From Ostreococcus lucimarinus (Eukaryota): DNA of 64,000 nucleotides. Below are positions 3,622-55,100 of this stretch, piece after piece; within the stretch, counting starts at the first letter, position 1; the number at the start of each line of letters is the position of its first letter. A model generated the notes under the pieces. It saw nothing but the letters and a program-made list of their open reading frames with translations, had not been told where the DNA came from and ran no database searches. Location: assembly GCA_000092065.1 (NCBI GenBank), contig CP000583.1. One strand, 5' to 3'. The position numbers were made by a program, and so were the translations under genes.

Positions 3622-5235
3622 TTAATCTTGTTCGAGCGCGGCGAGGCGCCCGAGGAGCTTGGCGTTTTCGAGGGAGAGGGCGTCTTTTTGCGCCTCGCAC
3701 TCGACGATTTCGTTTTGCAGCGCCGCGCACTCGGCGACGATGGTGTCTTTGACGGCCATCATTTCGCGCCCGATTGCGGCCAATTTTTCAAGGTTTCGAA
3801 TCTTTGCTTCTTGTTTGGATAAGGTGGCTTCAAAGTCCGCCTTCATCGCTTCCACGTCCTCGATGGGTGCGCCGACGGAGTTTAACAGCGTTTCCTCGAC
3901 GACGCCTTCGAGCGCGGAGATTTTAGCCTCCAAAGCGACGCGTTCTTGTGAGTGCGATTCGATCGCCGAGCGAAGCGCTTCGTCCCCCGCTAACTCCGCG
4001 CTTCGCACCGCTTCTGCGAGTTCGTCGACTCGGGATTCCAACTCTTCGACGGCGGCGGCGGCGGTTCGCGCCTCATCGCGCGCTCGCTCGAGATCGTCCC
4101 GCAACGTCTGCACGACGCTTTCACTGGAATCGAGCGTTGACTGTGCTTCACGATATGAGGCTTCGAGACGCTCGATTTGCGCGGTCGAAGCCGTCGCATT
4201 TTGCTCGTACTCTTGGCGCTCAGACTTTCGCCGTTGGGCTTCGTCGGAGAGACGGCTCTCCAACTCATCGCGAGCCGACTCTAGCGATGCGATGCGCTCG
4301 AGAAGTTCTACACCTCGATTGACTTCTATGCTGTGCGCGGATTGCGCGTGCGTCAACTTCTCTTCCACCTCGCGAAGTTGTTCGGCCATCTTTTGCTCCT
4401 TCTCCGCGAGCGCGCCCTCAAGTCCCGCCCTGACGCGTCCGAGCTCGTTCGCTTCGGCTCGCGCCTCCTCGAGCGCTACGTTCGATTGGTCCACGGCATC
4501 GACTGCAAGACTCAAGCGTGACTCTATGTCGCTCATCGCCTCAATCGTCTCCTTTTCGAATTCCTCCAGCGTGAGCTCGAGTAAAGTGGCTCGGCGTTCG
4601 GCGGCGGCGCGAGCCGAATCGCCCGATCCGCTCGCGCTCAGAGCTCCTATGCGTTCAGCTGCGCGCAATCGCTCACGCATTTCGCTTTCTAACGCCTCAA
4701 GTCGCGCCTCCTCCTTCTCCGTCGCGCGCTGTAATTCCTCTTCAAGCTCTCTATTCTTCGCCTCACTCTCCTCGAGCATGTGTTGCATCGCGTCCGTCAC
4801 CGCCTGCGCCGTGTCCCGCTCGCGATCGATTCCAGCCTCCTTCGCCGTCTCCAACTCACGCTCGAACGCCGCGCGCATCGCAATCATCTCATGCGCGTGT
4901 GCGTCCTCCATTTCCGTCACCGCGCTCGCATCGCCCGACCTCGACGCCCACCCCTCCTCGAGCGCCGTCAACTCCTCGCGCAGGTGCGCGTTTTCGTTGT
5001 GCGCGTCCCGCAGCTCTTCCCGCAGCCGCGCCACGATCGTCGCGTTCGGCGCCGCGCCGCCGTTCGCGTCGACGTCGTCGGGCGACACGCCGCTGTCTCC
5101 GCGCACGACCGCGCGCGCCGTCGTCGTCGTCGTCGTCGCGCGTCGGGACCGCCTTATCCGCATCGCGCGCGCGCGCGCGTCGTCGCGTTCGCGGCGCGCC
5201 GTCGCGCTCGGCGCGACGGCGAGCGCGCGCGACAT
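3622..5235 (-). CDS. Long coiled-coil protein (A/E/R/L-rich, SMC/myosin-tail-like heptads)
   Basis: 537-aa ORF with charged-heptad composition (ELEEELQRATEKEEARLEALESEM...). The overlapping plus-strand ORF 3659..5305 is S/A/R junk. Confidence 0.5.
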   Translation of the reverse strand: MSRALAVAPSATARRERDDARARAMRIRRSRRATTTTTTARAVVRGDSGVSPDDVDANGGAAPNATIVARLREELRDAHNENAHLREELTALEEGWASRSGDASAVTEMEDAHAHEMIAMRAAFERELETAKEAGIDRERDTAQAVTDAMQHMLEESEAKNRELEEELQRATEKEEARLEALESEMRERLRAAERIGALSASGSGDSARAAAERRATLLELTLEEFEKETIEAMSDIESRLSLAVDAVDQSNVALEEARAEANELGRVRAGLEGALAEKEQKMAEQLREVEEKLTHAQSAHSIEVNRGVELLERIASLESARDELESRLSDEAQRRKSERQEYEQNATASTAQIERLEASYREAQSTLDSSESVVQTLRDDLERARDEARTAAAAVEELESRVDELAEAVRSAELAGDEALRSAIESHSQERVALEAKISALEGVVEETLLNSVGAPIEDVEAMKADFEATLSKQEAKIRNLEKLAAIGREMMAVKDTIVAECAALQNEIVECEAQKDALSLENAKLLGRLAALEQD

Positions 5236-6390: not shown

Positions 6391-8088
6391 CTAGTGCCTG
6401 TCGATGTCTTCCAAAATCACCTGGGTCGACGGCGCGAGACGACGAAGATATTTGAACACCCAGAATTTAAATAATACGTCCACGGAGACCGGCACGAAGG
6501 CAACGAAGAGCGAAATGAGTTCTTCTTGTTCCTTCACGCCGTAGTGACCGCCAATGCTACGCAAAAGCGTTTGCCACGCGTCGGCGGAGTGATAGCCGAC
6601 GAGGACGTCCGAGGAGAGCAATAAAATGAAAGCTTGTTGCGCGGGCTCGAGGCTAAAGAATGCGTTCTTCGTCCCAGTGACGACGACTTTGGCTTGATCA
6701 GAGTATACGACAACCATGATCAAGAAAGCAGAGATAAAAACCAAGTCTCCGTACCGGTTGCCTCCGACTTGGATGAAGTGATTGATTTCCTCATCCTCCA
6801 GACGTTGCGCCTCGTGTCGAATCTTTTCCTCCTTTTGAATCGACGTGAGCGGTGCCTCACGACCCATAAGGATGTCAAACTCCATGCGTTGTTGGTAACG
6901 GGTAAGCTTACCGAGAATCTCCGCCTCTTGATCGTCGCGCAGCTCTATCGTGGTCCTGTCCTCGCCCGCTAATTTCAGTTCTTGGCTCACGATGGGATCG
7001 ATGATGGTGAACGTGACAACTTTGGAGATCAAGCTCGGAATGACAAAGAAATTGAACATCCACTTCGCGGCTTCGGATTGCGCAAATTCTTTGACGGCTT
7101 CCGCGAACGATTGACTAAAGTTCGTCTCTTCCTGTTGCTCCGCATCGCCCCCTTCGTCGAATTCGTCTTCCCATTCGCCGGAGAAAAACGCGCTTCCCTT
7201 CTTCTTCGCCTCGACTCGCGCTTGCTGAAGAGCTTTGCGTTTTTCTTGCTCTAGTACGCGCTCTCGCTTCTTGCGCCTTCGCTCGAGCTCTTTTGCGATC
7301 CGTTTCGCGCGACGTTGGCGCTCCAGCGTCTCGAGCTCGTCCACATCGATCGCCGTCTGTCCTAGAATGGCGTCGAATAAATCCGGCGTTCTCGCCTTCA
7401 TCCCATCCAGCGCCGTGCCGTCCAAACGCGAGCTATCCCACGACATACTATCGCCCCATTCTCTCATCACCTTGTCCGCGTCCGTGACCTTGATTTTCGA
7501 CGAACTTTCCTCCTTCTTCTTCCGCTTCGTAAACGTCGCCAACGCGCCGCCGACGTCCACCCCCGTCCACTTCTTCGCCATCTTATTCGACCCGTCCTCC
7601 GCCGCCCGCCCGCTCGACGTCCCGCCGCTCGCATCGCTCTCCTCGCGCGCTAACTCGATCGCGTCTTCCCAATTCCGGTCCGACGCGTCCGCGTCCGCGT
7701 CCGCGTTCGCGCCCCCCTCCGCGGCGGCTTCCGCGTCGTCCCTCTGCGCGATCGCCCGCGGCGCCCTCGTCCCCATCCTCGCGCGCCACGACTCCCGTCG
7801 CGCGCGCGTCCCCGGCGTCACTCCATCGGCGTCCGTTCCGCGCCCTCGCGCGTCGCGCCTCCCGCCGCGCGTCGCCGTTCGAAGCGTCGTCGTCGTCGCC
7901 GACGTGGCCGTCCCTACCCGCGGCATCTTTCGCGCCTGTCGCTCGCGCTCGCGCGCGCGCGCGCTCGCGCGCGTCCGGTTCGACGGGCAAAGACGCGTTC
8001 GCGTCGCTCGCGCGGTCGCGGTGCGCGCGTCGCGCCGCGCGCGTCGCGGTGTGCGCGGGCGCGCGCGCGGTCGACGCGGGACGCACAC
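6391..8088 (-). CDS. Hypothetical membrane protein with a K/E-rich coiled-coil middle and a conserved hydrophobic C-terminal region. The N-terminus is uncertain and may start at an internal Met.
   Basis: The C-terminal 300 aa contain several hydrophobic segments (NFFVIPSLISKVVTFTIIDPI, DLVFISAFLIMVVVYSD, LFVAFVPVSVDVLFKFWVFKYLRRL). The N-terminal 150 aa are R/A-rich and may not be translated. Confidence 0.45.
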   Translation of the reverse strand: MCVPRRPRARPRTPRRARRDARTATARATRTRLCPSNRTRASARARERERQARKMPRVGTATSATTTTLRTATRGGRRDARGRGTDADGVTPGTRARRESWRARMGTRAPRAIAQRDDAEAAAEGGANADADADASDRNWEDAIELAREESDASGGTSSGRAAEDGSNKMAKKWTGVDVGGALATFTKRKKKEESSSKIKVTDADKVMREWGDSMSWDSSRLDGTALDGMKARTPDLFDAILGQTAIDVDELETLERQRRAKRIAKELERRRKKRERVLEQEKRKALQQARVEAKKKGSAFFSGEWEDEFDEGGDAEQQEETNFSQSFAEAVKEFAQSEAAKWMFNFFVIPSLISKVVTFTIIDPIVSQELKLAGEDRTTIELRDDQEAEILGKLTRYQQRMEFDILMGREAPLTSIQKEEKIRHEAQRLEDEEINHFIQVGGNRYGDLVFISAFLIMVVVYSDQAKVVVTGTKNAFFSLEPAQQAFILLLSSDVLVGYHSADAWQTLLRSIGGHYGVKEQEELISLFVAFVPVSVDVLFKFWVFKYLRRLAPSTQVILEDIDRH

Positions 8089-8208: not shown

Positions 8209-10250
8209 ATGGTGCGACCGCGCGCCGCGGACGACGCGCGACGTCGCGAAGCGCCGCGCGAGACGCGTCGACTCGAAGACGCGCGCGGACTGACGACGAC
8301 GCGATCGACGCGCGAAATCGCGGTGTAGGTGGTGCTGTCGGCGGCGATCGTCACCAAGGGCGGTAAAGGTGCGTGGAGAAGATAACGATGCGTCGAACGG
8401 GACGCGCGGGGAGGCGCGGATGCGGTCGCGACGCGCGCGAGGGTGGGATTTCGAGACGAGGGCGGAACGGTCGAGATCAAAGCGAAAGAAGCTCGGTGAC
8501 GGAAGACTGACGGTGGTGACGCGCGTGCGATGATGATGTAGCGCTGGTGTCGAGGCAGTACGTGCAGATGACGCGCGTGCGCGTCGAAGGGTTGCTCGCG
8601 GCGTTTCCGAAACTCGTCGGAAGCGGGAAGCAACACACGTACGTGGAGACGGAAAACGTGCGGTACGTGTATCAGCCGCTCGAGTGCGGGACGATGTACT
8701 TGCTGCTGGTGACGACGAAGGGCAGTAATATCTTAGAGGATTTGGACGTGTTGCGGTTGCTGGCGAAGACGCTGCCGGAGTACACGCAAGGGCAGGTGGA
8801 TGAAGAGGGTGTGTCGTTCGCGGCGTTCGATTTGATCTTCGCGTTTGACGAGATCATCTCGCTCGGGTACAAGGAAAACGTAACGATGGCGCAGGTGAAG
8901 ACTTTCACAGAGATGAACTCGCACGAAGAAAAGCTGCACAAGATGATGATCCAGAGTAAGATCAACGACACGAAGGATGTCATGCGTCGCAAGGCTACGG
9001 AGATCGACAAGGTCAAGCACGAGATGCAGCAATCAGCGATGCAACGAAGCGGAGGTTACGGCGGCCCGAGCCGCGGATTCGGGGCGCGAGATTCGTTCGA
9101 TGCGCGCGGTGGTTTTGGTGGGCAAAGTGGCGGTTTCGGTGGCCAGCAGGGAGGTGGTTTTGGTGGGCAAGGCGGGTTCGGCGACGGCTCGAGCGGCAGC
9201 TTCGACGACGGACGCAACGACGAGTTTGGATACCTCGGCCGCGGCGGCGGCGGAAGTGGCTCGTTCGGTGACGACCACCCGACGAGTGGCGGGTTCAGAA
9301 CCAGGTACAGCGATGACGTGGGCGGATACGGTCAACAGAGCTCCCCGGGTATGCCCCAAAAGTCTCTCGCCGGGCCGAAGAAGGGCATGCAACTCGGTGG
9401 CAAGCCGAAGACGAACCAGTTCCTGGAGAGTTTGCGTGCCGAAGGCGAATCTGTGGACGCAGATTTCGGCATCGAACCTTCTCGACCTGAAATGCCCGTT
9501 GCGGCGGCGCCTGCGGCGGCGCCGACGGAGAGCGTGAGTCTGGTTGTGGAAGAAAAACTCAACGTCACCTTGAACCGCAACGGCGGATTGGAGCAAATGG
9601 ATTTGCAAGGCAACATGCTTCTCGAAGTGCGCAACGAAGACGACGCTCTCATTCGTGTCGTGACCAAGGCGGGTGAGAACGCTGGGTTTCAGTTCAAGAC
9701 GCACCCGAACATTGACAAGGCTCTGCACGCAAACGAGAAAATTTTAGGCTTGAAGGACCCCAACCGTCCGTTTCCGTGCGGCTCGGCGCTCGGCGTGTTG
9801 AAGTGGCGATTCTCCACTAAGGATGAATCTGCGCTGCCTCTCAGCATCAACTGCTGGCCGACGATCAACGGCGGAGAAACCGCGGTGAGCATCGAATACG
9901 AGGCGTCGGATGCGATGGATTTACAAAACGTCGTCATTTCCATCCCGTGCCCGCCGTGCCGAGACCCGCCCGCGGTGAACTCGTGCGACGGCGAATTCCG
10001 ATTCGACGCGCGCAACGGCGTCATGGAGTGGAATATCGAGCTCATCGACGACAGCAATCGAAACGGAAGCATGGAATTCGTCATTCCTGTGGCCGACACA
10101 GAAGCGTTCTTCCCCATCGACGTCCACTTTTCTTCCGCGAAGACGTTCTGCGATATCGAAGTCGCGAGCATCTCTCGCACGACGGATGGCGCCCCCGTGA
10201 CGTTTGGCGGTAGAACGATGATGCTCGTGGACTCGTACCAAGTCGTATAG
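8209..10250 (+). CDS. ARCN1: Coatomer (COPI) delta subunit. Proposed exons: 8209..8211 (ATG only), 8329..8368, 8542..10250.
   Basis: The main exon has a longin-like N-domain ([45 protein letters not shown]) and a mu-homology C-domain collinear with metazoan delta-COP. The upstream micro-exon [13 protein letters not shown] plus ATG restores the conserved [15 protein letters not shown] N-terminus. Introns are 8212..8328 and 8369..8541, each GT...AG with an ACTGAC branch motif about 35-40 nt from the 3' splice site. Confidence 0.8.
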
Positions 10251-17165: not shown

Positions 17166-18794
17166 ATGTGGCGTCTCGGCGTCTCGGCGGCGTCACTTCG
17201 CGCGCCTCGCGCGCGCGACGCGACGCGATTCGAGCGCCTCGAGCGCGCGGCGCGGCGCGATTCGCGCGGCATGCGTCGCGCGGCGCGAGAGACGATATAC
17301 GCCCTCGCCACCGCGCGCGGGCGCGCGGGCGTGAGCGTCGTGCGCGTGAGCGGGCCGAACGCGCGCGACGCGCTGCGGCTGACGAGACCGCCGGGAGGCG
17401 CGAATTCGAGCGACGGCGCGTCGTCGACGAACGCCGCGGACGCGCGCGCGCGGTCGCGGGCGGCGGAGACGAGCGCGACGGCCGCGGAGCACGGACGGTT
17501 GCGGTTGGTTGAGTTCGCGCGAGGCGACGCGGCGCGCGACGAACCGCCCATCGATGTGGGATTTGTCGCGGTGTTCGCGTCGCCGAGGTCGTTCACGGGA
17601 GAAGATGTGGTAGAATTACACGCGCACGGTTCGGCCGCGGTGCAGCGCGCGCTCATGGACGCGCTGGGGACGTTGGATAATTTTCGCGTCGCCGAAGCCG
17701 GGGAGTTTTCGAGGCGAGCGTTTAGAAACGGGAAGATGGATTTGACGCAGGCTGAGGGGTTGGCGGATCTCTTGGACGCGGATACGGAGGCGCAGAGACG
17801 ACAAGCGATGATGTTGTCGCGGAACGCGGCGCAGAGATCGATGTATGAGACTTGGAGGAAAGAGTTGTTGACGTGCGCCGCGTATTGCGAGGCGGCTTTA
17901 GATTTCGGCGAGGAGGAGGATATAGCGAGCGACGTGGTGGAGAGGAAAGTGCGCGAACGCGTCAAGGCGCTTCGCGATACGTTACAAAAGTATTTAGACG
18001 CACCCGCGCGTGGGGAGCTGATTCGTCGGGGCGTGCGCGTCGCCCTCGTGGGCTCGCCTAACGTGGGCAAGAGTTCGATGCTCAACGCGCTCGCCGGCCG
18101 CGACGCCGCCATCGTTTCGCCGCACGCGGGGACGACTAGAGACGTCCTAGAGGTGTCTCTCGAGCTCGGTGGGTACAAGGTCATCGTCAGCGATACTGCC
18201 GGTCTTCGTGAGACCGAAGACGACGTGGAAAAGCTTGGCATCGCTCGAGCGCTCGAGCGAGCCGAAGACGCCGACGTCGTCGTCGCCCTCGCGGACGCCA
18301 CTAACGACGCATCCAACATCGATCTCAAGGCGCTCAATTTATCGAAAAAGACAATCGTTAACGTATGGAACAAATCCGACGCGCTGAGTGACGGACAAAC
18401 GCGCGAGTTGATGGAGATTGAAAACGAAACCGCCGCGGATGGCTACGAAACCGCCGTCGTGAGCTGCCTCACCGGCGCCGGTCTCGACGGTTTCATCTCG
18501 ACTCTCACGCGCATCGTCGCTCAAAAGTGCACGATCGGCGATGACGCATCCGACGCCAACGATTCCACCCTCGCCATCACGCGTTCGCGCCATCGAGTCA
18601 ACCTCGCTCGGTGCGTCGCTTCGCTCGACGCCGCCGTCGCGCGCGCTCGCGCGTCCTCCGCCTCCGCCTCCGCGCTCGAGCTCGAGGCCGAGGAGTTAAA
18701 GCTCGCGGCGCGCGCCCTCGGTCGCGTCACCGGCGCGTACGACGTGGAAGACGTCTTAGACGTCGTCTTTCGCGATTTCTGTGTAGGAAAGTAG
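17166..18794 (+). CDS. mnmE: tRNA modification GTPase MnmE/TrmE (MSS1/GTPBP3-type, probably mitochondrial)
   Basis: N-domain IYALATARGRAGVSVVRVSGP. G-domain LVGSPNVGKSSMLNAL...TTRD...DTAGLRE. C-terminal FCVGK motif. Starts 15 bp from the divergent NOP53 ATG. Confidence 0.85.
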   Translation: MWRLGVSAASLRAPRARDATRFERLERAARRDSRGMRRAARETIYALATARGRAGVSVVRVSGPNARDALRLTRPPGGANSSDGASSTNAADARARSRAAETSATAAEHGRLRLVEFARGDAARDEPPIDVGFVAVFASPRSFTGEDVVELHAHGSAAVQRALMDALGTLDNFRVAEAGEFSRRAFRNGKMDLTQAEGLADLLDADTEAQRRQAMMLSRNAAQRSMYETWRKELLTCAAYCEAALDFGEEEDIASDVVERKVRERVKALRDTLQKYLDAPARGELIRRGVRVALVGSPNVGKSSMLNALAGRDAAIVSPHAGTTRDVLEVSLELGGYKVIVSDTAGLRETEDDVEKLGIARALERAEDADVVVALADATNDASNIDLKALNLSKKTIVNVWNKSDALSDGQTRELMEIENETAADGYETAVVSCLTGAGLDGFISTLTRIVAQKCTIGDDASDANDSTLAITRSRHRVNLARCVASLDAAVARARASSASASALELEAEELKLAARALGRVTGAYDVEDVLDVVFRDFCVGK

Positions 18795-18970
18795 CCCCCC
18801 TCGCCCGCCTCGCCTCCGAGTCGCGCCGCCGCTCGTCGCGCGCGCGAAATCTGGAAATCGTCCGCGCGGCGACCCCGCGCGACGTCGCATCGCGTCGCGT
18901 CGTGCGCGTTCGCGACGACCTCGCGCGTCACCGCGCCGCGACGACCGGCGCGCGCGGCGAAACGCACGAA

Positions 18971-21355
18971 TCATGGTGCGACGCGCGCGCGATCGATCCA
19001 AGCCTCGCGCGCGCGACGCGACCGCGCGCCGACGACGCGACCGGTGTCGAAAGATGAAGATCGAAGATCTCGACGAACGCGCGGTGATGACGAACGACTG
19101 ACGCGGTGTGACGCGACGCGAACGCCGAGCAGGGGTTCGGAGACGCGCAAGAAGACGTCACGGACGCCGAGGGAGCGCTGTTTCCGATATTCGTCGTGAG
19201 CATGCTCGGGACGTTTTTGATTCCGGCGACGATCGCGCGACTGGCGAGCGCGGCGACGAAGACGGAACGCGGGAGCGGAGAGGGGAAGGGTGACGCGGCG
19301 AGCTCGAAGAAGCAGACGCAGACGATATCGACGGAGATTAGTGACGTAGAGAGTGAATGGGGAAAGGCGGCGATGGCGTCGATGAAACGGCGTAAGATGA
19401 CGACTGGGAGGCGCGTGGGCGGATTGTTTCGAGGGACCAATTTGTGGTACACGCTCGGGTGGATCGTGATGATCGCGCTGTCCGTGTACATCACGAGAAC
19501 GCCGTTACAGGAGAAACGGTTCGATCCGTACGATATCTTGGACCTGCGCGTGGGGGCGAGCACGAAGGAAATTAAGAGCGCGTACAGAAAGTTGTCGCTC
19601 AAGTATCACCCAGACAAGAACCCGGATCCCGCGGCGGCGGTTTATTTCGCCGAGTCCATCGCGCCGGCGTACAAGACGCTGACGGACGATGTCGCGCGAG
19701 AGAACTACGAAAAGTACGGTCATCCTGATGGTAAACAGAGCACCAAGCTCGGCATCGCGTTGCCCGAGCAACTTTTTGGAAAGGGTGGCATGGCGCCGGT
19801 GATGCTCATCGTGCTCGTTGTCGGAGGTATCATGCTTCCGCTTTTCATCGCTATGTGTTCGATCCGTAAAATGAACAAATTTGGTGGAAACAACGTGCTC
19901 AAGCAGACACAGGTTAATTACGCGCGCATGTTAAAGCCGGTGCTCGCGCTCTCAAAGGTTCCGGAGACGCTCGCCGTGGCGCACGAATTCATCGAGACGC
20001 CGTTCCTCGATGGACAAGATGCGGCCGTAAGCCAGCTTCTCAAAGATTACAAGAACGAGTACGAATCGAAAGATCAAAAGCTCATGAAGCGGTTGCCGAC
20101 CATCATCAAAGCACACATGTTGATCCTTACTCAGACGTCCCGGCGTGCGGCTTCGCTTCCACCTGTGCTCTCCGCGGATGCTAAAAAATTGGTGCTCACC
20201 CTGCCTCGATTGATCGAAGAGTTGCTCAAGATCGCAGCGATGCCAATCAACCGCGCCGGTCATTCGTACGCGCGACCGCAGATCAGCGTCATGGAGTTTT
20301 ACCAATGCTTCACTCAAGGCGTGCCTCTTTCTTCGCGAAAGCGAGATGAAGACGGAAACGCGAGTTTGCTTCAGCTCCCACATTTCTCCACGGAAAACCT
20401 CAACGGTGTTGCAAAAAAGTGCAAATCCCTGCACGCGCTGATGAAATTATCGAGCGAGGATCGCAAAAAGCTGTTGATTGGCGCAAGATTTTCTGAGGCC
20501 GCGACGAAGGATGTCGAGCGTCAGCTCGCGGTGATCCCACGTGTGACGACTTTTGAGGCGAAAATATCTGTCGACGACGACGACGACACCATCATGGAAG
20601 GAGATTTTGTCACCGCGAAGCTCAAGATTAAAATTGGACGATCTGGTGGACCGCTAGGTGGCGCGTTGCCTCCGTTACCGTTTTGCGCCGCTGATCGTAC
20701 AGAGGGTTGGCGCGTGTTCGTGTACGATCAATCCACGAACACCCTCTTAGCTAGCTCGACGTTAAAGCAGCGCGATGTAGAGAAGGCTGAGCGCGGGGAT
20801 GAACCTTTGGATTTGTCTGTCCAGTTCGTCGGCTTGCCGAGCGGTATGTACAACGTGGGCGTGTCGCTGATGAGCGACTATTGGATTGGTGTCGACGCCA
20901 AGGTTTCGTGCATGATGAAGGTGCTGAAGCCCACCGCGACGAACGTGGCAGCGCGCGAAGCCAAGTCCGCATCGCGTTCGGACGTCACGAAACCGAACGC
21001 TGAAGTGGAGGAGGAAGAATCGAGCGAATCGGACTATAGCGATGACGACGAGGACGATTACAGCGATGAGGACTATCCTTCGGATGAAACGGGAACGTCG
21101 GAATCCGATGATGAAGCCCGGGCTAGAATTGACGCGATGCGACGTCCTGAACAGACCAAAAACACAGTAAAGGAAGGTGCGACCGCTGCAAAACCGGCGT
21201 CAGTGCCGCAGCGAAAGACATCGACATTTGGACAGAAGGCGGCAGCGGCACGTCCCTCGATTCCAGGGCAAGCGGTTGTCCAGCAGACGCCGGCCACGGA
21301 AAAACCGGTCGTCGCCGAGGAAGTAAAGCCGGATACTGTTGATAACGTAGACTAA
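18971..21355 (+). CDS. SEC63: Translocation protein Sec63 (J-domain plus Sec63/Brl domain). Proposed exons: 18971..18973 (ATG) and 19133..21355.
   Basis: J-domain DPYDILDLRVGASTKEIKSAYRKLSLKYHPDKNP, then GHPDGKQSTKLGIALP and LLQLPHFSTENL, collinear with metazoan SEC63. Conserved N-terminal TM (GALFPIFVVSMLGTFLIPAT) lies upstream of the first in-frame ATG at 19202 with no ATG before the stop at 19109. This implies an ATG-only 5' exon at 18971 with donor GTGCGAC and branch ACTGAC at 19096. The acceptor could instead be 19129 or 19132. Confidence 0.75.
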
Positions 21356-22745: not shown

Positions 22746-22821
22746 GTGAGAAGAGGGTTGACGCGACGGAGGCGGGAAGGGCGAGGGACTGACGAATGAC
22801 GCGCGCGTTCGAAAATCACAG
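22746..22821 (+). other. Putative 5'UTR intron of the RPL12 gene (GTGAGA...ACTGAC...cacAG), ending 4 nt before the ATG
   Basis: Donor-like GTGAGA at 22746. ACTGAC branch-like motif at 22787-22792. AG at 22820-22821. ATG at 22826. Confidence 0.3.
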
Positions 22822-27759: not shown

Positions 27760-28482
27760 ATGTCCGCGCAGTTCACGCGCGCGGGCGACCCGAACGATGA
27801 CCGCGGTCCGTCGATGATGGTGCGACACGCCGAGCAGCGCGCGCGCGAGGCGGCGGCGAACGCCGACCGGTACCTACGCGAGACGTTCCCGAGAGCGAAC
27901 GCGACGACGCTGGCGCTGGCGCTCAAAGAGTTCAACAACGACGTCGCGCTGGCGAAGGACGCGTTGAAGGAGTTCTTCGAAGAGGAAGACGGAGGCGGTG
28001 GGCGAGGACGGCGACGGGGACGGGGACGAGGCGGGGAGGAGGACGCGCGACGCGACGGAAAGCGACGGCGCCGCGACAAAAAGGAGAAGCGAGAGAAGGA
28101 TAGAAAGCACAAGCGCAAACACAGGCGACGCTCGCGTTCGCGTTCGCGTTCGCGTTCGCGCGAGAGATGGCGCGAGCGACGACGGGACGAAGAGGCGGCG
28201 CCGCGACGCGCGTTCGGTAACGACGAAGAGGAGCGCCGAGCCGAGCTCGCGGAGGCTCGCAAGAAAGACGAAGAGGCGAGACAGAAAGAGATCGTCGCCA
28301 GACTTCGCGCGCACGGCGACGTGAGCGTGATGCGCGAGCAAGAGATACTTCGCCAGAAGTTGCAAATCGCCCATCGCGTCGGCGACGCGAGCGAAGCGGA
28401 ACGCATCAAGGCTTTGCTGTCAGTCGACGACGCGCTCGCGAAAGCCGCGAAGAGTAACTACGGCTTTCGACCCGGAGATTGA
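27760..28482 (+). CDS. CUE-domain protein with an arginine/serine (RS) and K/R/E-rich low-complexity region
   Basis: N-terminal LRETFPRANATTLALALKEFNNDVALAKDALKEF fits the CUE/UBA-like consensus (MFP...AL...N.V..A...L). It is followed by RSRSRSRSRSRERW and a KKEKREKDRKHKRKHRRR region. Confidence 0.5.
   Translation: MSAQFTRAGDPNDDRGPSMMVRHAEQRAREAAANADRYLRETFPRANATTLALALKEFNNDVALAKDALKEFFEEEDGGGGRGRRRGRGRGGEEDARRDGKRRRRDKKEKREKDRKHKRKHRRRSRSRSRSRSRERWRERRRDEEAAPRRAFGNDEEERRAELAEARKKDEEARQKEIVARLRAHGDVSVMREQEILRQKLQIAHRVGDASEAERIKALLSVDDALAKAAKSNYGFRPGD
28134..28163. repeat. (GCGTTC)5 hexanucleotide microsatellite encoding the RSRSRSRSRS tract
   Basis: The direct repeat cgcgttcgcgttcgcgttcgcgttcgcgttcgcg is visible. 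Confidence 0.8.
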
Positions 28483-46168: not shown

Positions 46169-49100
46169 CTAATTTTGTTTCGCGTTGGCGTTCACGAACG
46201 GCGAGAGCGCGCTCGAAAGCCAACGCGCGGCGTCTTCGTCGGCGCATCGCACGACGATCGACGTCGGCGTCGCCGCGTCTTCGCCGCGGAAAGTCTCATC
46301 GACGTCGTGGAATGATTGATCCTGTTCTCGATGCATCCACCCGAACGCGAATCCATACGCTCGAGCGAACACGCTTTGCGTCTGTGCGAGGGACACGCGC
46401 GTCGATCGCTCCGCTCTCGCGGCGTACACGGAGACGCGATTCCCGTCGCGAAGGACGCCGGAGATGTCCACAAATCTCACGCTCGAGCGCACGTACGGCG
46501 CGTTGACGTCCGATCGATGAACGACGAGCAGTTTCCCACCCGTCAAAACACACATATCGTGCGACGGCCACATCAACGAAGCGGTGGCGACGAATCGTTC
46601 TCGTTTTTCGCTCGAAGCGAGTTTCGCGAGCGTCTCCCTGCCGATGGCCTCTATGAGATGGTACGGCCGTATGGGGTCCATGTATGACGTGGGAAGCGGG
46701 CGACGCGGGCGCATGTACTCCCCTTCGAACGTTTTCGCCGCCGTGAAAAGTCGAAGTCGCCTCGCGCTGAGCTCGGCGCCATCCAGAGCGGCGGCTAAAA
46801 CGCGCGTCAACGCGCTCATCAAGCCGATGACGGAGCCTTCAACCAACCCTCTCACGCCGGCCAGTTCCAGGCCATGCAGTGGTCCATCGATGACATCGAA
46901 GACGACGCGACCGACAGTGTCAAATATGCGCGCCACAAACGTCACCGTCGCCTGCTTCTCGAGATCTTCGACCGTGCCGAGTCTTCTCGGTCGAAGCGAA
47001 AATCGCCGACTGGCTTGGGCGACTTCCAGCGCTTCGAGCCAACCATCGACGACGTCACGCGCTTGCGATAGCGCCGTCTCTCCAGAATGCGCAAACGCAG
47101 CTGTGAGTGCCATTATTACTCGTGGCAACGCGGTTGTCGCCGAACCTTGATGCATCTCATCGAAAGCTTCGATGATTTCATCCCAAAGCCGGCGCGGATC
47201 GCCGAGTAAGGAGTTATGCGCCCAAAGAGAACCGGCGACGATGACGGCTTCCCTAGCGAAATGACGCGCGGCCATCATGCTGACATCTGCCGCCATGAGT
47301 GACGGCTGGTTCATGTGAAAGCCTCGCAGTCGCAAATTCGCGCGATCAACGCCGGCCAACGCTCGTACGGCGACCGGTAATCCGGGTAAACGAGAAAACG
47401 ACAGGACGAGCTCGACATCGTTTATGATGAGTTCTTGTAAGTATACGGACGTAAGCGCGCCCACAGTTTCGCCTTCCAAGCTGCGCTTACGTGCACCGTT
47501 CGCTTTTATCGTCGGTTTCGCAGGAGGCAAGAGCAACTCTGCGTGACGGACGCACGGCGCGATGGCGCGCGGCACGGATTCAATCAATTCATCGTGTAAA
47601 TCGACGAATGCTGGCGCCAAATCAACCTTCAACGAACGTATGACGGGTAAACCATTCAACTTCTGCACCCGTCCGTGCACCTGCAACTCGAGTGCCTCTC
47701 GGGCGCTTTGATGCCGCTCGGGTATGGCTAACACGATTGGTCGTTTCGCTTTGCTGCTTGTGTGATCGACTCGTGCGCTGTGCACGCGGACGGCGCTCTT
47801 GAACTCGGAACCGTCCGCGAGCACCTTCACCGTAATACCACTCACGCGTCCGTACAGCAACTCTTCGTGTCCATGGATCGCACTCACACCAATCCAACCA
47901 CACTTGAACGACACGTTGACGGGGGCTCCGGGGCGTTGGGGCGTCTTCGTCGATAGTCGCGGGCGCTCGGGCGTATCTGCGACGCGACTGCTCAGCGCGT
48001 CTTCAATGATGACAGAGCACATCGGTCCCTCTCTCGTTACCATCACGCGCAAGCACCGCTTGTCTGTCGTCACCACGCTATACGACAGAGTGCGAGTGAT
48101 GTCAAGCGAAATCGGTTCGCCCAACGAAAGATCGCCGTACCCAATGACGAGCGCGCGAGGAAGAGACGAGTCTTCAATCAGTCGCTCTTCGCTCTCCTTG
48201 GGCGCGAGCGTCGCGCGCGCATCATCGGCACCGAGCTGGTGATACCAGATTGACGCGTTCGAGTGGTTCTCGATGGAATGCATTCCGAGCGCGCCGTCGA
48301 TCTCAGTCGGCCGCGCGATGCGAATGTCAAACGTTCCGTCGTCGTTTTCTAGAATCGAGACCGTGATAGTTTCCGTGTGCAACGTACTATCTCCGCCGAG
48401 GTGACGCATCTTCAGTATAGAAGCAGTATGCTCAGGCACATGCACTGGCTTAGACCATTCGAAAACTCCCTTCTCCGGTCTGAACATGATCACTTTGGGC
48501 ACCTTGGAGCGCATGTCAAACCAACGCAGCGGCGTCGCCGAGCGGGGCTGCAACAAATCCACGCTCTCCGTGCCGCCGTGTCGGATCCAAACGGCTTCGT
48601 CTAGCGTACTTTTGATGAGAAACTTTGGTCGTATCATGATCTTTGCCGTCTTGCACAATTTATCGGTCGAAACCATGGAAGCAGTCACGACGAATACATG
48701 CTCGCAAACATCTGAGCCGGCGTCTGAGGGTAGCCTGATTTCAATCGGCAGACCCGTCGGATCGATCCTAAAAGGGCGACTCCACGCGCTTGAAGACTTG
48801 AGCCGAATACGAATCCGTGGACGCCGTTTGATTGACTTGCGCCAATGCGCTGAACTACCGAGAACGGTCGCGCGTTGATCCAGTGAATCCTCGTCGTCGA
48901 CGCCGTAGTCCACGCCGTGGTCCGTCGATACCGTCTGGCGTCCGGGCGTTGATGGCGTGAGAAGCGTGACCGAATCGGCATTCAATCGCAACGACGACTG
49001 TCGCATCAACAACGGGCTTGTTTGTGACAACACATTCGTCGAAGAACTCATACGTCGAAGAGACGGCAAAGCTTGATTCTGCGCAAGTCGAGCGAAAGGA

Positions 49101-52100: not shown

Positions 52101-55100
52101 AAAGAATGAGTAAAATGTACATCCTCGACATCGAGTAATGAAGTAGAAAACTCGGCGTTGAGAATAGAGAGTAACATTCTAGGGAGCTCAAGTTCCACGT
52201 GCGAGGCATTGCCTCGAATCTCCATGGCACGCGTCGTGAGCGCAACCGCTTCCTTTTCGCCCGACTCTTCAAAGAGCTTGAACGACATGGGTTCAATGGA
52301 GCCGTGTAAAAATAGTGACAACGAGTCTGCGATATCGAACGTCGCTACACAACTCCACGCCCTGTCGAACTCACCACGGACGGAACGACTCTGAATAGGG
52401 CTCGCGACGTGCAGACGTTCACCAAAGAACTTCTTGACGTCTTTCGTAAGGCGGGCAAACTCTGATAGCGTTTCGAGTACATTTTGCGTAACTCTTACGT
52501 CGATGGCTCCCAATTCGATCGTACCCGCGATTCGTGCGCAGACGTGAGCTTTCAGTATAGAGTCCTTCGGCGAGCAACGCACAATTTCTGTTTGCGCCGA
52601 ATCAGCGTCCATGTGCACGCCAGATACCGTACCTACGCTTGATTTCATCCTCCAATCGTCGCTCGAACCCTTCGTGGCGATACTGATGTCCGTGACCGTG
52701 TAATGCATTCGGCCTGATGCGCTATTCAAATTCAGCGCGATCTTTTCTAAGTTGAATCGAAGCCCAGAATCCACGGCGAAGGGCGTCGAACTCGCAGTTG
52801 TCTGTACAGAGACGTCTGCAAAGGCTTGGACCACGTGAACCACCGCCGCGACGCTTACCGGATCGAAGTTGAGTTCGATCGGTTCCAAGTCTACCATCGT
52901 CACATCGGAATCGAATATTGTCGCATCGTTCACGACAGTAAGTTTCACTCCTTCAGCTATAGCAGCGGAGGCGTTTGCCGCGGTCATCCACGCGCCGTCG
53001 ACGTGTGCGAAACTACGAGTTTGCAAAACAAATTCAGACAACTCTTCCAGGGCGCGCCACGCTTCCTTTGCATCGTAAGCATAATCCATCATCGCTGAAG
53101 CTTCGTCTACCAATCGATCAAACGATCCATCATCGCGTGATCGCGAACCGTTTTCCTGGCAAAAGACAATCTTTTCCGCGCCAAACGCCAACGCAGCCGA
53201 CGTCTCCACATCGATCGATGGCGGTGCAGTTTGAGCGGGTACGACAAGTAAGGGTGAATCGATCTCAACGAGCACAGGTATCGCTTGTATCCCGTCGCCA
53301 AGGAGCTTGATCATCTTCAACCTGCACTCTGGCGAGCGATTGTTCAACCCCAAAGTCGCTCTTCGTAGTGCTTGCCAGTAAGGTCCATCTCTGATACTCG
53401 CGAAACCCGCGAGCACTTTGGCCGTTGACGGTCGAATAGCCATACCGTGTGGCGCCATCTTCACGTGCACGTTTACGAGCACGTCCAGCGTCGCGCACGC
53501 ACTCGGATTCAACTTGATCGTAACCGCTCGCTCGCCATCAGTTTCTCGAGACCAAATCATATCCTCAGCAACACCCGAGCTCGAGTCCTCAGCGTGCACG
53601 CGATCGACGTGTATCTGCGTCTCACTGACGACACCTTCGTCATCGGCGAAGAGAGCACCATGCGCCAGTGATATGTTATTCGCCGTGAACCGTAATCGAT
53701 TCTCCGCCGCGTCTCGAATCGTCATCGAGACGCCGGGAATCTCCACAGATACTTCTGGCTCAAAGTCACCGACTGATTCTGATGCCGACGCATATTTTGA
53801 TGACACGTTGACATAGTTGTAAGCTTTGGAGATGTAACTCGTGCTCTTGGCATAGAGATAGCTCGTGAGACTCGTTGACGTCTGTTTTGACTCTGGCATT
53901 CTTCTTATCTGCTCCGCGGTCTCCTCCGCATCATCGCCGCTGGTGTCGAATATATCCGCGGCGCTGTATGACGAGTGATACGAAGGAAACATGCTATCCA
54001 TCATATCATCTTCTGTCTCTTGAAGACTCGCCACCTTGCGCTCGACAAGCGATGTGATGAGCTCAACGTCATCCGCCGTGAGCCTCGTCTCAAACTTTTG
54101 TAAATGTTCAGGCATCGTGATTCTCTGCCCACGTTTGCGCTCGACGCACACCTCGACGTACGCCTCGAGCTGTGAGCGCCCATGTCTAAGTCTATCTAGC
54201 ATTCGAGCGCGATGGTGCTCTCCGCGCGGCACCGTCGCCCTGACGGCGTATCTCCACCAATCGACGGGATTCTTCGTCTTTGGTCTACGTTCGCCGTGCG
54301 CTCTTCTCTTCGTCCACATATCAATCTCATCGCGCACCAAAAGCAACATCTGCGCCTGCGAAGCGCTAATATTCGTTTCTAGAACGTCTCGAACGTCTAT
54401 CTTCGCGACGTATTTCGATGCCTTCGGGCGAAGGAATCTCGCGCGCCGCGCGCGTTTGCGCAAGTGCACGTCCATTCGCACGCGACCGTTCGGTCCCACG
54501 ACATCGTGCTGCCCCGACGTCTCACCATCATCCACGATGAGCGACAGTCCTGTTATTTCGACGCGCTTCATCGCGTCTCCGCTGAACGACGCGTCGCCCG
54601 CGTCGTCGTCGTGCTCGGAAGTCTTTGTTTTCTTTCGCTCTGGCTCGCCGTCGTTCGCGTCCTCGTCATCCTCCGCTGACCGAGCGCTCGACGTCTTCCC
54701 TACGCTCTTCATCGTAAACCGCTCGATGCTTCCTCGCAATCGCCCGACGTCACCCTCCCGCCCCGAACCCGTCGCCTTCGTCGCGTACGTCGCGCTCGCG
54801 CGTCGACACTCCACCGATAAACGCTCAAACGCCGCCGCGAACCACGCGTTGGACCACGCCGACCCTTTCACCATCTCTCGCGCGTGCGTCTCCATCGCGC
54901 TCGCGATGTGTTCCATCGCTTTCTCCCTCGCGTCCCGTCGTTCGCGCAGCGCATCCGAGTCGACCCCATCACCCGAGTCGTCTTCGTCTTCTTCGTCGTC
55001 GTTCGGCGCCTCCGCCTCGACGTCGACGCCTTCCACGCGCACCCGAAGCGTCTCCTCTCGCTTCCCGAACACCGCGTAGTGCACGTCGATCGTCTCGATG

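Follow-up and report, generated by a model that had tools for sequence, protein, structure and literature searches.

The question raised by this locus is how the Sec63 protein of Ostreococcus lucimarinus begins. We analysed one strand of a 64,000-nucleotide stretch of contig CP000583.1 (assembly GCA_000092065.1; hereafter the window), and the host gene is, judged from its sequence, that of the Sec63/ERdj2 translocon subunit, with a J domain, a Brl domain and homology to the yeast protein (Pfam matches DnaJ, 9e-19, and Sec63, 4e-12; yeast Sec63 structures PDB 7kah_D and 6n3q_D, E = 1e-33). The reading frame that opens at 19133 translates as GFGDAQEDVTDAEGALFPIFVVSMLGTFLIPAT, and its first in-frame ATG is at 19202. 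A start at that position would lose 9 of the about 21 residues of transmembrane segment 1 (TM1), the core of which lies at residues 15-36 by hydropathy, and would lower the hydropathy of the segment from 2.08 to 1.30. We propose that the initiator codon lies further upstream and that a canonical spliceosomal intron of the U2 type, inserted in phase 0, separates codon 1 (ATG, 18973-18975) from codon 2 (GGG at 19133), a reading to which we assign a probability of about 0.9. The predicted spliced product has 741 amino acids, comprising a 15-residue N-terminal tail, TM1 (about residues 16-36), the DnaJ domain and the Sec63 Brl domain.

Splice signals at the Sec63 start codon

The signals of a start-codon intron are all present in the window (Table 1), and the predicted intron lies in phase 0 directly after the initiator ATG, the position that characterizes this class. 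An intron here had been put forward in the original prediction, of which the acceptor (cAG, 19130-19132) stands, whereas the other coordinates were off by 1-2 nt: aatcATG lies at 18969 rather than 18971, the donor at 18976 and ACTGAC at 19097 (19097-19102, within the GACTGACG motif). The initiator is embedded in aatcATGG, with A at -3 and with G at +4 in the unspliced and the spliced RNA alike, and it is the first ATG on the + strand downstream of the TrmE gene, the preceding one (18541) lying within the TrmE ORF. The intergenic region must carry the promoter and the untranslated portion of exon 1, an exon that would thus consist of a short 5' UTR and the AUG only. The spliceosome would recognise the donor G-GUGCGA (hyphens mark junctions throughout), the branch motif GACUGACG, whose presumed branch A (about 19101) lies 31 nt upstream of exon 2, and the CAG acceptor, and would join the AUG to GGG UUC GGA GAC, such that the first 36 residues of the product form the short tail and TM1.

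Removal of 18976-19132 restores a continuous conserved frame, M followed by GFGDAQEDVTDAEGALFPIF, which is the N-terminal motif common to all homologs, and the predicted spliced junction 40-mer is GCGAAACGCACGAATCATG-GGGTTCGGAGACGCGCAAGAAG. When the intron is retained, the ATG at 18973 opens an ORF of only 42 codons that ends at a TGA inside the branch motif, and hence full-length Sec63 would require splicing. A GAG at 19127-19129, 3 nt upstream of the CAG, makes a tandem acceptor possible, and its use could add one Gln to the protein. That the Sec63 RNA is actually spliced, where its transcription begins and that CAG is used in preference to the neighbouring GAG are inferences.

Table 1. Features of the Sec63 locus and of the delta-COP gene used for comparison (window coordinates).
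Feature	Coordinates	Strand	Sequence or basis
delta-COP start codon	8209..8211	+	catcATG-GTGCGACCGCG; spliced transcripts begin MVVLSAAIVTKGGKALVSRQ
delta-COP intron 1, start-codon intron, 117 nt	8212..8328	+	GTGCGACC ... GGACTGACGA ... gtAG
delta-COP intron 2, 173 nt, phase 1 after codon 14	8369..8541	+	aag-GTGCGTGG ... AGACTGACGG ... gtAG
Intergenic region	18795..18972	+	TrmE/MnmE-like stop (18792-18794) to Sec63 ATG; ORF list, TrmE-then-Sec63 synteny
Sec63 start codon	18973..18975	+	sole coding triplet of predicted exon 1
Predicted Sec63 intron, phase-0 spliceosomal, 157 nt, 68% GC	18976..19132	+	GTGCGAC...GACTGACG...CAG; signals and orthologs
Sec63 5' splice site	18976..18982	+	GTGCGAC; agrees with genus consensus GTGCGTG at +1 to +5
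Sec63 branch-point motif	19096..19103	+	GACTGACG; equals extended consensus of O. lucimarinus non-chromosome-2 introns
Sec63 3' splice site	19130..19132	+	CAG; only YAG adjoining GG conserved in orthologs
Sec63 exon 2, 740 codons and stop	19133..21355	+	ORF, Pfam, structure matches, hydropathy

Conservation across Ostreococcus and alternative starts

Seven Ostreococcus lineages were compared (the window, L001, L002/3, L004, L012, L006/7 and L008-10), among which Sec63 protein identity goes down to 58%. The gene order TrmE then Sec63 is kept at all of the orthologous loci. Each of the seven lineages has an ATG with a purine at -3 and the sequence ATG-GT(G/A)CG at the Sec63 start, as well as an exon 2 that begins GFGD, which gives an N-terminus of the form MGFGD...ALFP(I/V)F, and ACTGAC is found 20-35 nt ahead of YAG-GGNTTCGGNGA in all six lineages measured. 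As the original prediction held for the window, the conserved N-terminus and TM1 are recovered when 18975 is joined to 19133, and the equivalent is true in 7/7 lineages. The complete introns (n = 6) are 157-182 nt long, with lengths that leave a remainder of 0, 1 or 2 when divided by three, and their interiors are unalignable, being 58-60% identical compared with 72-81% for exon 2. The window and its 96%-identical relative L001 are separated by six indels of 1-2 nt in the intron and by none in 600 nt of exon, a 2-nt indel within the intron distinguishes L002 from L003, and the in-frame stop at 19109 reads as a sense codon in other strains. Starting precisely at the YAG, GFGD...ALFPIFVVS is conserved as protein in the seven lineages, with synonymous changes and whole-codon indels. 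The Sec63 intron thus behaves as non-coding sequence of which the position and signals are conserved, and it is this comparative evidence that argues strongly for it.

The reference annotations imply that there is no intron and that translation starts at 19202 or at a non-AUG codon to yield an N-terminally shorter Sec63. The O. lucimarinus entry XP_001416787.1, to which the window protein is 100% identical over the aligned part, is flagged partial, begins LFPIF and also skips 27 conserved residues, while the O. tauri entry XP_003078442.2 begins at an internal methionine (MVMEV), and the intron is not included in the reference gene models. Look-ups and junction scans also returned no spliced Sec63 transcript. 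Exact look-ups of the predicted spliced protein (seven lineages, six strain variants, and the MQ-acceptor and MKIEDLDERA models) gave no match; a search with the N-terminal 131 residues returned only a frameshifted genomic fragment; and of two scans of JGI metagenome contigs for the junction pattern, the first found nothing and the second three chance matches, none of which lies in Sec63 and two of which come from activated-sludge metagenomes. No public protein model of Sec63 starting MGFGD was found, and the case for the intron therefore rests on comparative evidence.

That evidence makes a start without splicing very unlikely. The protein-level conservation that begins precisely at the YAG speaks against it, as does the loss of TM1 residues from a start at 19202. 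There is no ATG between the in-frame TGA at 19109-19111 and exon 2, as had been noted originally, and none of the codons between 19111 and 19133 is a near-cognate start. In seven of eight loci an in-frame stop likewise precedes exon 2 by 0-8 codons and no ATG intervenes, nor in most lineages does any near-cognate codon. Across the five other lineages, represented by six loci, the first in-frame ATG falls at codon 60-78, beyond TM1, and a start there would delete the segment; an in-frame ATG able to encode TM1 without splicing was found in none of the seven. The homologs from plants and from Micromonas-like and Bathycoccus-like algae, moreover, have in every case an N-terminus of 6-20 residues followed by xLFPIF.

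A larger first exon had also been left open, running from the ATG at 19054 to 19083 (MKIEDLDERA) and spliced from a GTGATG donor at 19084 through a 49-nt intron. The ATG and the GT are present, the frame would join, and L001 and L002 contain a comparable string, AAAGATGA. The donor is, however, unlike the GTGCG of the genus, the branch motif would sit only 13 nt from it, and the transcript has an AUG ahead of that at 19054. Conservation does not extend to the MKIEDLDERA ORF: L002 lacks a usable donor there, the 2-nt indel sets L002 and L003 apart and L004, L006, L008 and L012 have no equivalent, in contrast to the invariant ATG-GT(G/A)CG, and the exact look-up of the corresponding protein was among those without a match. 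We now consider this exon structure highly improbable and retain the one-codon first exon.

Relation to the delta-COP start-codon intron

The window contains a second start-codon intron, in the gene for delta-COP, a coat subunit of 583 amino acids, and here splicing is observed at the transcript level: three public assemblies, L013, L014 and L015, which are independent of one another, lack exactly introns 1 and 2, the first as predicted. Intron 1 is also found in the O. tauri-like contig L012, as ATG-GTGCGTCG. The original prediction was correct that Sec63 and delta-COP share the junction ATG-GTGCGAC, and it took this identity as the mark of either an introner-like family or a conserved regulatory arrangement, neither of which is borne out.

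Motif counts are by themselves modest evidence for the Sec63 intron. The 10-mer ATGGTGCGAC occurs three times in the window compared with 0.14 expected, the 8-mer ATGGTGCG is not enriched (4 compared with 2.1), and the full signature ATG-GT[AG][CA]G...ACTGAC...AG is found twice compared with 0.2 expected, with 3 of 200 shuffles reaching two. The third copy of the 10-mer, at 27817, was rejected as an intron, as it lies inside a 240-aa ORF (MSAQF...SMMVRH) with a 221-aa read-through and no downstream branch motif. The ATGGT[AG]NG sites at 46658 and 55269, and at 54528 and 45259 on the - strand, have no ACTGAC branch within 450 nt.

Introns outside chromosome 2 of O. lucimarinus have the consensus donor GTGCG(T)G and the extended branch motif GACTGACG (Irimia and Roy, 2008; PMC2483917). 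The Sec63 intron has the same GTGCG, the same branch motif, the same short fixed distance from branch to AG and the same intron-poor genomic setting, and it differs in nothing substantive, carrying AC rather than the consensus TG at +6/+7. Six consensus introns were identified in the window, all of them 5'-proximal and in unrelated genes, and all six fit this class. In the Sec63 orthologs the donors are GTGCGAA, GTGCGCG, GTGCGTC (twice), GTGCGAA and GTACGTA, such that +6/+7 is AA, CG, TC, TC, AA or TA where the window has AC. As these two bases differ even in the closest relative, L001, their identity in Sec63 and delta-COP would be due to chance, and by this comparison the shared junction is the start codon, the lineage-wide 5' splice consensus GTGCG and two chance bases. 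It points neither to a common origin of the introns nor to a control element that the two genes share.

Introner elements, which are known in the related genus Micromonas, and other introner families exist in many near-identical copies and are often polymorphic from one strain to another. A mobile family of this type inserting at ATG-G would account for the excess of the 10-mer, which is identical at the two junctions, and both introns are CG-rich with GCGACCGCGCGCCG-like strings in common; the picoalgal lineages are related, and the concept of sequence common to numerous introns applies to both. Nevertheless, the bases that the two introns share are those of the start codon and the consensus donor. 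Alignment of the two, the check that the original prediction itself had suggested, gave a Smith-Waterman score of 32 compared with 29.8 +/- 3.3 for dinucleotide shuffles, 131 of 500 of which reach the observed score. Comparison of both introns and delta-COP intron 2 with 500 dinucleotide shuffles and 814 window tiles revealed no excess similarity, and no further intron copies were found in the 64-kb window. The Sec63 intron is at the same site in 7/7 lineages with its interior fully diverged, and is hence old rather than a recent insertion; neither recent gain nor presence/absence variation was seen, and the delta-COP intron position is shared with a lower-GC Mamiellales relative. An introner origin is thus as improbable as the larger first exon.

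The remaining suggestion is that the start-codon intron serves secretory-pathway genes specifically, as a conserved means of regulation, for example through regulated intron retention that gates the translation of Sec63 and COPI. Both examples are indeed secretory-pathway genes, the intron position is conserved across the genus and the main ORF would go untranslated if the intron were retained. The sample is, however, two genes, and the other four consensus introns of the window are equally 5'-proximal (delta-COP intron 2 and those of an FBPase-family gene, RPL12 and a gene for an unknown protein). No conserved element or stable fold was found in the interior of the Sec63 intron, the fold of which is not unusual (z = -0.83), and no RNA element in the whole window matched Rfam; a scan for bacterial promoters and terminators, uninformative for a eukaryote, found nothing. 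In the Micromonas-like and Bathycoccus-like Sec63 genes the N-terminus is encoded contiguously, and both a 5' bias and a peak of start-codon introns are general in eukaryotic genes (PMC1626468). We therefore regard a dedicated regulatory role as unlikely, if slightly less so than the alternatives above, and as both introns are no more alike than shuffles and meet at consensus and chance bases, the Sec63 intron is better viewed as an ordinary member of its class.

Known intron classes and consequences for annotation

Start-codon introns are a known class, in phase 0 between codons 1 and 2, and are statistically associated with short, lysine-rich and often ribosomal proteins, an association that is not a criterion for membership (Nielsen and Wernersson, 2006; PMC1626468). 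The introns described here agree with that class in phase and location, in the conservation of their position among orthologs and in the G at +4 that makes ATG-G a proto-splice-like site (PMC1626468). They differ in their hosts, the 741-aa polytopic membrane protein Sec63 and the 583-aa delta-COP, and in the atypical donor, GTGCG rather than GTAAG or GTATG. The pattern also resembles that of other lineages. Intron-poor genomes, such as that of Saccharomyces with its ribosomal-protein genes, have few introns, all of which lie close to the 5' end or within the 5' UTR and carry near-invariant signals. The Ostreococcus introns are likewise few, 5'-proximal and near-invariant in their signals, with several at or adjoining the start codon, but yeast uses GTATGT and TACTAAC where Ostreococcus uses GTGCG and ACTGAC, and the lineages are independent. 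No new mechanism is revealed here, as the literature already describes this type of intron, the signals it carries and the class to which its position belongs.

The main value of the finding is for annotation, in that the corrected model gives back the N-terminal tail and TM1 of Sec63, a core subunit of the ER translocon, in a model picoeukaryote. A first exon of one codon is easily overlooked by gene finders, and the failure is seen for two genes in two reference genomes, the O. tauri delta-COP entry, like that of Sec63, beginning at an internal methionine. Predictions of topology or targeting for such Ostreococcus proteins thus call for care. The introns of this one 64-kb window cluster strongly towards 5' ends. 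It is conceivable, though we consider it doubtful, that introns at or near the start codon are selectively maintained in the intron-stripped Ostreococcus genome, where obligatory splicing of the AUG would boost or gate housekeeping expression, and that they are systematically missed by annotation. If this were true, many of the Ostreococcus reference proteins that are now 'partial' or N-terminally truncated, and the targeting predictions made from them, would be wrong.

The 5' end of the Sec63 gene

The Sec63 (ERdj2) ORF contains DnaJ and Sec63 Brl domains, is matched by yeast Sec63 structures at E = 1e-33, and is identical at every aligned residue to XP_001416787.1 of O. lucimarinus CCE9901. 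The window accordingly belongs to O. lucimarinus or to a strain almost identical to it. Every homolog recovered, from land plants and from Micromonas-like (MVQSDPTDAHGNLFPIF) and Bathycoccus-like algae, begins with Met, followed by 6-20 residues and then xLFPIF. The earliest in-frame ATG of O. lucimarinus exon 2 is at 19202, and a start there lowers the hydropathy peak from 2.08 (19-residue window from residue 17, LFPIFVVSMLGTFLIPATI) to 1.30. The features of the originally predicted intron directly after the start codon were all found, with coordinates shifted by 1-2 nt (see table). There is no + strand ATG between 18541, within the upstream TrmE/MnmE-like ORF, and 18973, so that 18973 is the first AUG for any transcript starting in the 179-nt intergenic region. 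A TGA at 19109-19111 is in frame with exon 2; it is the sense codon CGA in other strains (proteins P0244/P0253, beginning V/MRRDANAEQGFGD).

Features of the Sec63 locus and the six credible introns of the window
Feature	Position	Strand	Place in gene	Details
Sec63 start codon	18973-18975	+		ATG
Sec63 donor	18976-18982	+		GTGCGAC
Sec63 branch motif	19096-19103	+		GACTGACG
Sec63 possible tandem acceptor	19127-19129, then 19130-19132	+		GAG, then CAG
Sec63 exon 2	from 19133, stop 21353-21355	+		translation GFGDAQEDVTDAEGALFPIFVVSMLGTFLIPAT...
Sec63 intron	18976-19132	+	after codon 1	donor GTGCGA
delta-COP intron 1	8212-8328		after codon 1	donor GTGCGA
delta-COP intron 2	8369-8541		after codon 14, phase 1	donor GTGCGT
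FBPase-family (SBPase-like) intron, ATG 40117	40099-39925	-	after codon 6 (MSAMST-MNAATRAR...)	donor GTGCGC (GTGCGCGC), branch CGACTGACGA
Intron of uncharacterised 706-aa protein gene, ATG 15500	15464-15283	-	after codon 12 (MREIRARKPPVK-YEPTMNRL...)	donor GTGCGT
RPL12 intron, ATG 22826	22746-22821	+	5' UTR, 4 nt before ATG	donor GTGAGA; cta-GTGAGAAG ... GGACTGACGA ... cacag-aaagATG

We propose that Sec63 exon 1 would comprise the 5' UTR and the AUG, which splicing would join to GGG so that G at +4 is kept. If retained, the intron would give an ORF of 42 codons (41-49 for most orthologs) whose TGA lies inside the branch motif, so that the main Sec63 ORF would go unread. The intron has no match in Rfam, and its RNA fold is not unusual.

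Conservation of the Sec63 start among Ostreococcus lineages

Syntenic loci, in which TrmE is followed by Sec63 and, on contigs long enough, by RPL12 farther along, were fetched from assemblies of metagenomes and genomes. They cover six Ostreococcus lineages besides the window, with Sec63 proteins 96% (L001), 76% (L002/L003), 74% (L004), 71% (the O. tauri-like L012, whose protein cluster contains O. tauri XP_003078442.2), 59% (L008-L010) and 58% (L006/L007) identical to that of the window. The junction is ATG-GTGCG(A/C/T) or ATG-GTACGT with a purine at -3 in every lineage, an ACTGAC branch lies 20-35 nt upstream of YAG in the six lineages measured, and exon 2 opens with GG(N)TTCGG(N)GA in 7/7, so that the spliced N-termini would all read MGFGD...GALFP(I/V)F. 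The conserved acceptor is only the YAG adjoining GG; the possible NAGNAG arrangement at 19127-19132 is confined to the window and L001, and the GAG of the window could serve as a minor acceptor adding one Gln.

Judged from sequence comparison, the DNA between these invariant anchors behaves as non-coding. Complete introns measure 157-182 nt, with lengths of 0, 1 or 2 modulo 3, and interior identity is 58-60% (effectively unalignable) versus 72-81% over the opening 600 nt of exon 2; the window and L001 differ by six indels of 1-2 nt within the intron, whereas their exon sequence has none. In 7/8 loci exon 2 is preceded, at a distance of 0-8 codons, by an in-frame stop, and no ATG intervenes. 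For the five lineages more distant from the window, the earliest in-frame ATG is codon 60-78, far past the first transmembrane segment; hence their genes could not encode the conserved N-terminus without the splice. An alternative exon, ATG 19054..19083 with donor GTGATG, is disfavoured: its donor is off consensus and only 13 nt from the branch, another AUG precedes 19054 in the transcript, and its short ORF is unconserved and is broken by the 2-nt intronic indel that is the sole difference between L002 and L003. With its signals and layout conserved in all seven lineages and no alternative start for the N-terminus, the inferred start-codon intron is the correct, and a useful, description of Sec63 gene structure. 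In Micromonas-like and Bathycoccus-like Sec63 the N-terminus is contiguous with its own ATG, and thus the intron is common to the Ostreococcus lineages examined and unseen in these relatives.

Transcripts, reference models and delta-COP

For delta-COP, two Logan contigs and one from JGI carry an uninterrupted coding sequence for P0268 (MVVLSAAIVTKGGKALVSRQYVQMTR...); these contigs are identical to the window's delta-COP exons and 5' UTR and lack both introns exactly at the predicted sites. One of the three also carries neighbouring genes, consistent with the reported joining of transcripts via overlapping UTRs in Ostreococcus RNA-seq assemblies (PMC4378021). Spliced Sec63 was not found by exact look-ups of the predicted product or by N-terminal protein search, and two junction-pattern scans gave chance matches only, so that we infer the Sec63 splice rather than observe it.

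The reference models of both genes are wrong or incomplete. XP_001416787.1 is 'partial' with a spurious 27-aa internal gap; the omitted residues (SEWGKAAMASMKRRKMTTGRRVGGLFRG, window ~19352-19435, +) keep the reading frame and are for the most part conserved among orthologs. Besides lacking its 5' end, the model thus seems to contain a falsely predicted intron. The O. tauri references begin at an internal MVMEV (Sec63) and at MTRVRVEG (delta-COP, 79% identical to the window ORF). Agreement between the O. tauri reference (GCA_000214015.2, CAID01000003.2; L011 9417-9720) and L012 (228-470) ends ~300 nt 5' of delta-COP exon 2, with unrelated sequence exactly at exon 1 (ATG-GTGCGT) and most of intron 1. 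The divergent stretch of the reference contains no ATG-GT, and the reference delta-COP model is truncated at its N-terminus; either variation between strains or faulty assembly could account for this.

A Mamiellales relative of lower GC content (L019 1100-1520; delta-COP 60% identical, lacking Ostreococcus intron 2) shares the first codon of delta-COP exon 2 (gtaAG-GTCGTCTTGGCA, encoding VVLAAS), preceded by a pyrimidine tract and TACTGAAC, with a candidate ATG-GTTAGT ~390 nt upstream. These signals suggest that the delta-COP start-codon intron may predate the genus Ostreococcus.

The shared junction and its positional class

The ATG-GTGCGAC shared by Sec63 and delta-COP (catcATG-GTGCGACCGCG at 8209) had prompted the suggestion of either a recurrent, perhaps introner-like, intron family or a conserved regulatory arrangement. 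O. lucimarinus introns have been EST-confirmed by Irimia and Roy, and those outside chromosome 2 have a strong atypical 5' consensus, GTGCGTG, with ACTGAC in 87% and GACTGACG in 66.5% (PMC2483917). Credible introns account for 6 of the 17 ACTGAC sites in the window; all six contain GACTGACG and lie within the 5' UTR or first 14 codons. Thus ATG-GTGCG is a start codon plus a consensus donor, and the AC at +6/+7 is not conserved (AA, CG, TC, TC, AA and TA in Sec63 orthologs; TC in O. tauri-like delta-COP). Alignment of the Sec63 intron to that of delta-COP scores 32, within the range of dinucleotide shuffles (29.8 +/- 3.3; 131/500 reach 32), and their common CG-rich strings are compositional; an introner-like family is therefore unsupported. 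A third ATGGTGCGAC, at 27817, has no intron and is ordinary coding sequence, within a 240-aa Arg/Lys/Glu-rich ORF (27760-28482, +) that has an RS-like repeat (RSRSRSRSRSR) and no match in Pfam. ACTGAC and a YAG 4-5 nt 5' of the RPL12 ATG likewise occur in L001 (~4700-4820), L004 (~6540-6660) and L006 (~7250-7370).

Surviving introns of intron-poor genomes are typically strongly 5'-biased. The six 5'-proximal window introns are in genes unrelated in function, which leaves the regulatory architecture unsupported, and the two secretory-pathway cases are no sign of an arrangement peculiar to that pathway. Across eukaryotes, phase-0 introns immediately following the initiator ATG are in sharp excess (PMC1626468). 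The Sec63 intron belongs to this known positional class and is an old and ordinary spliceosomal intron with consensus signals.
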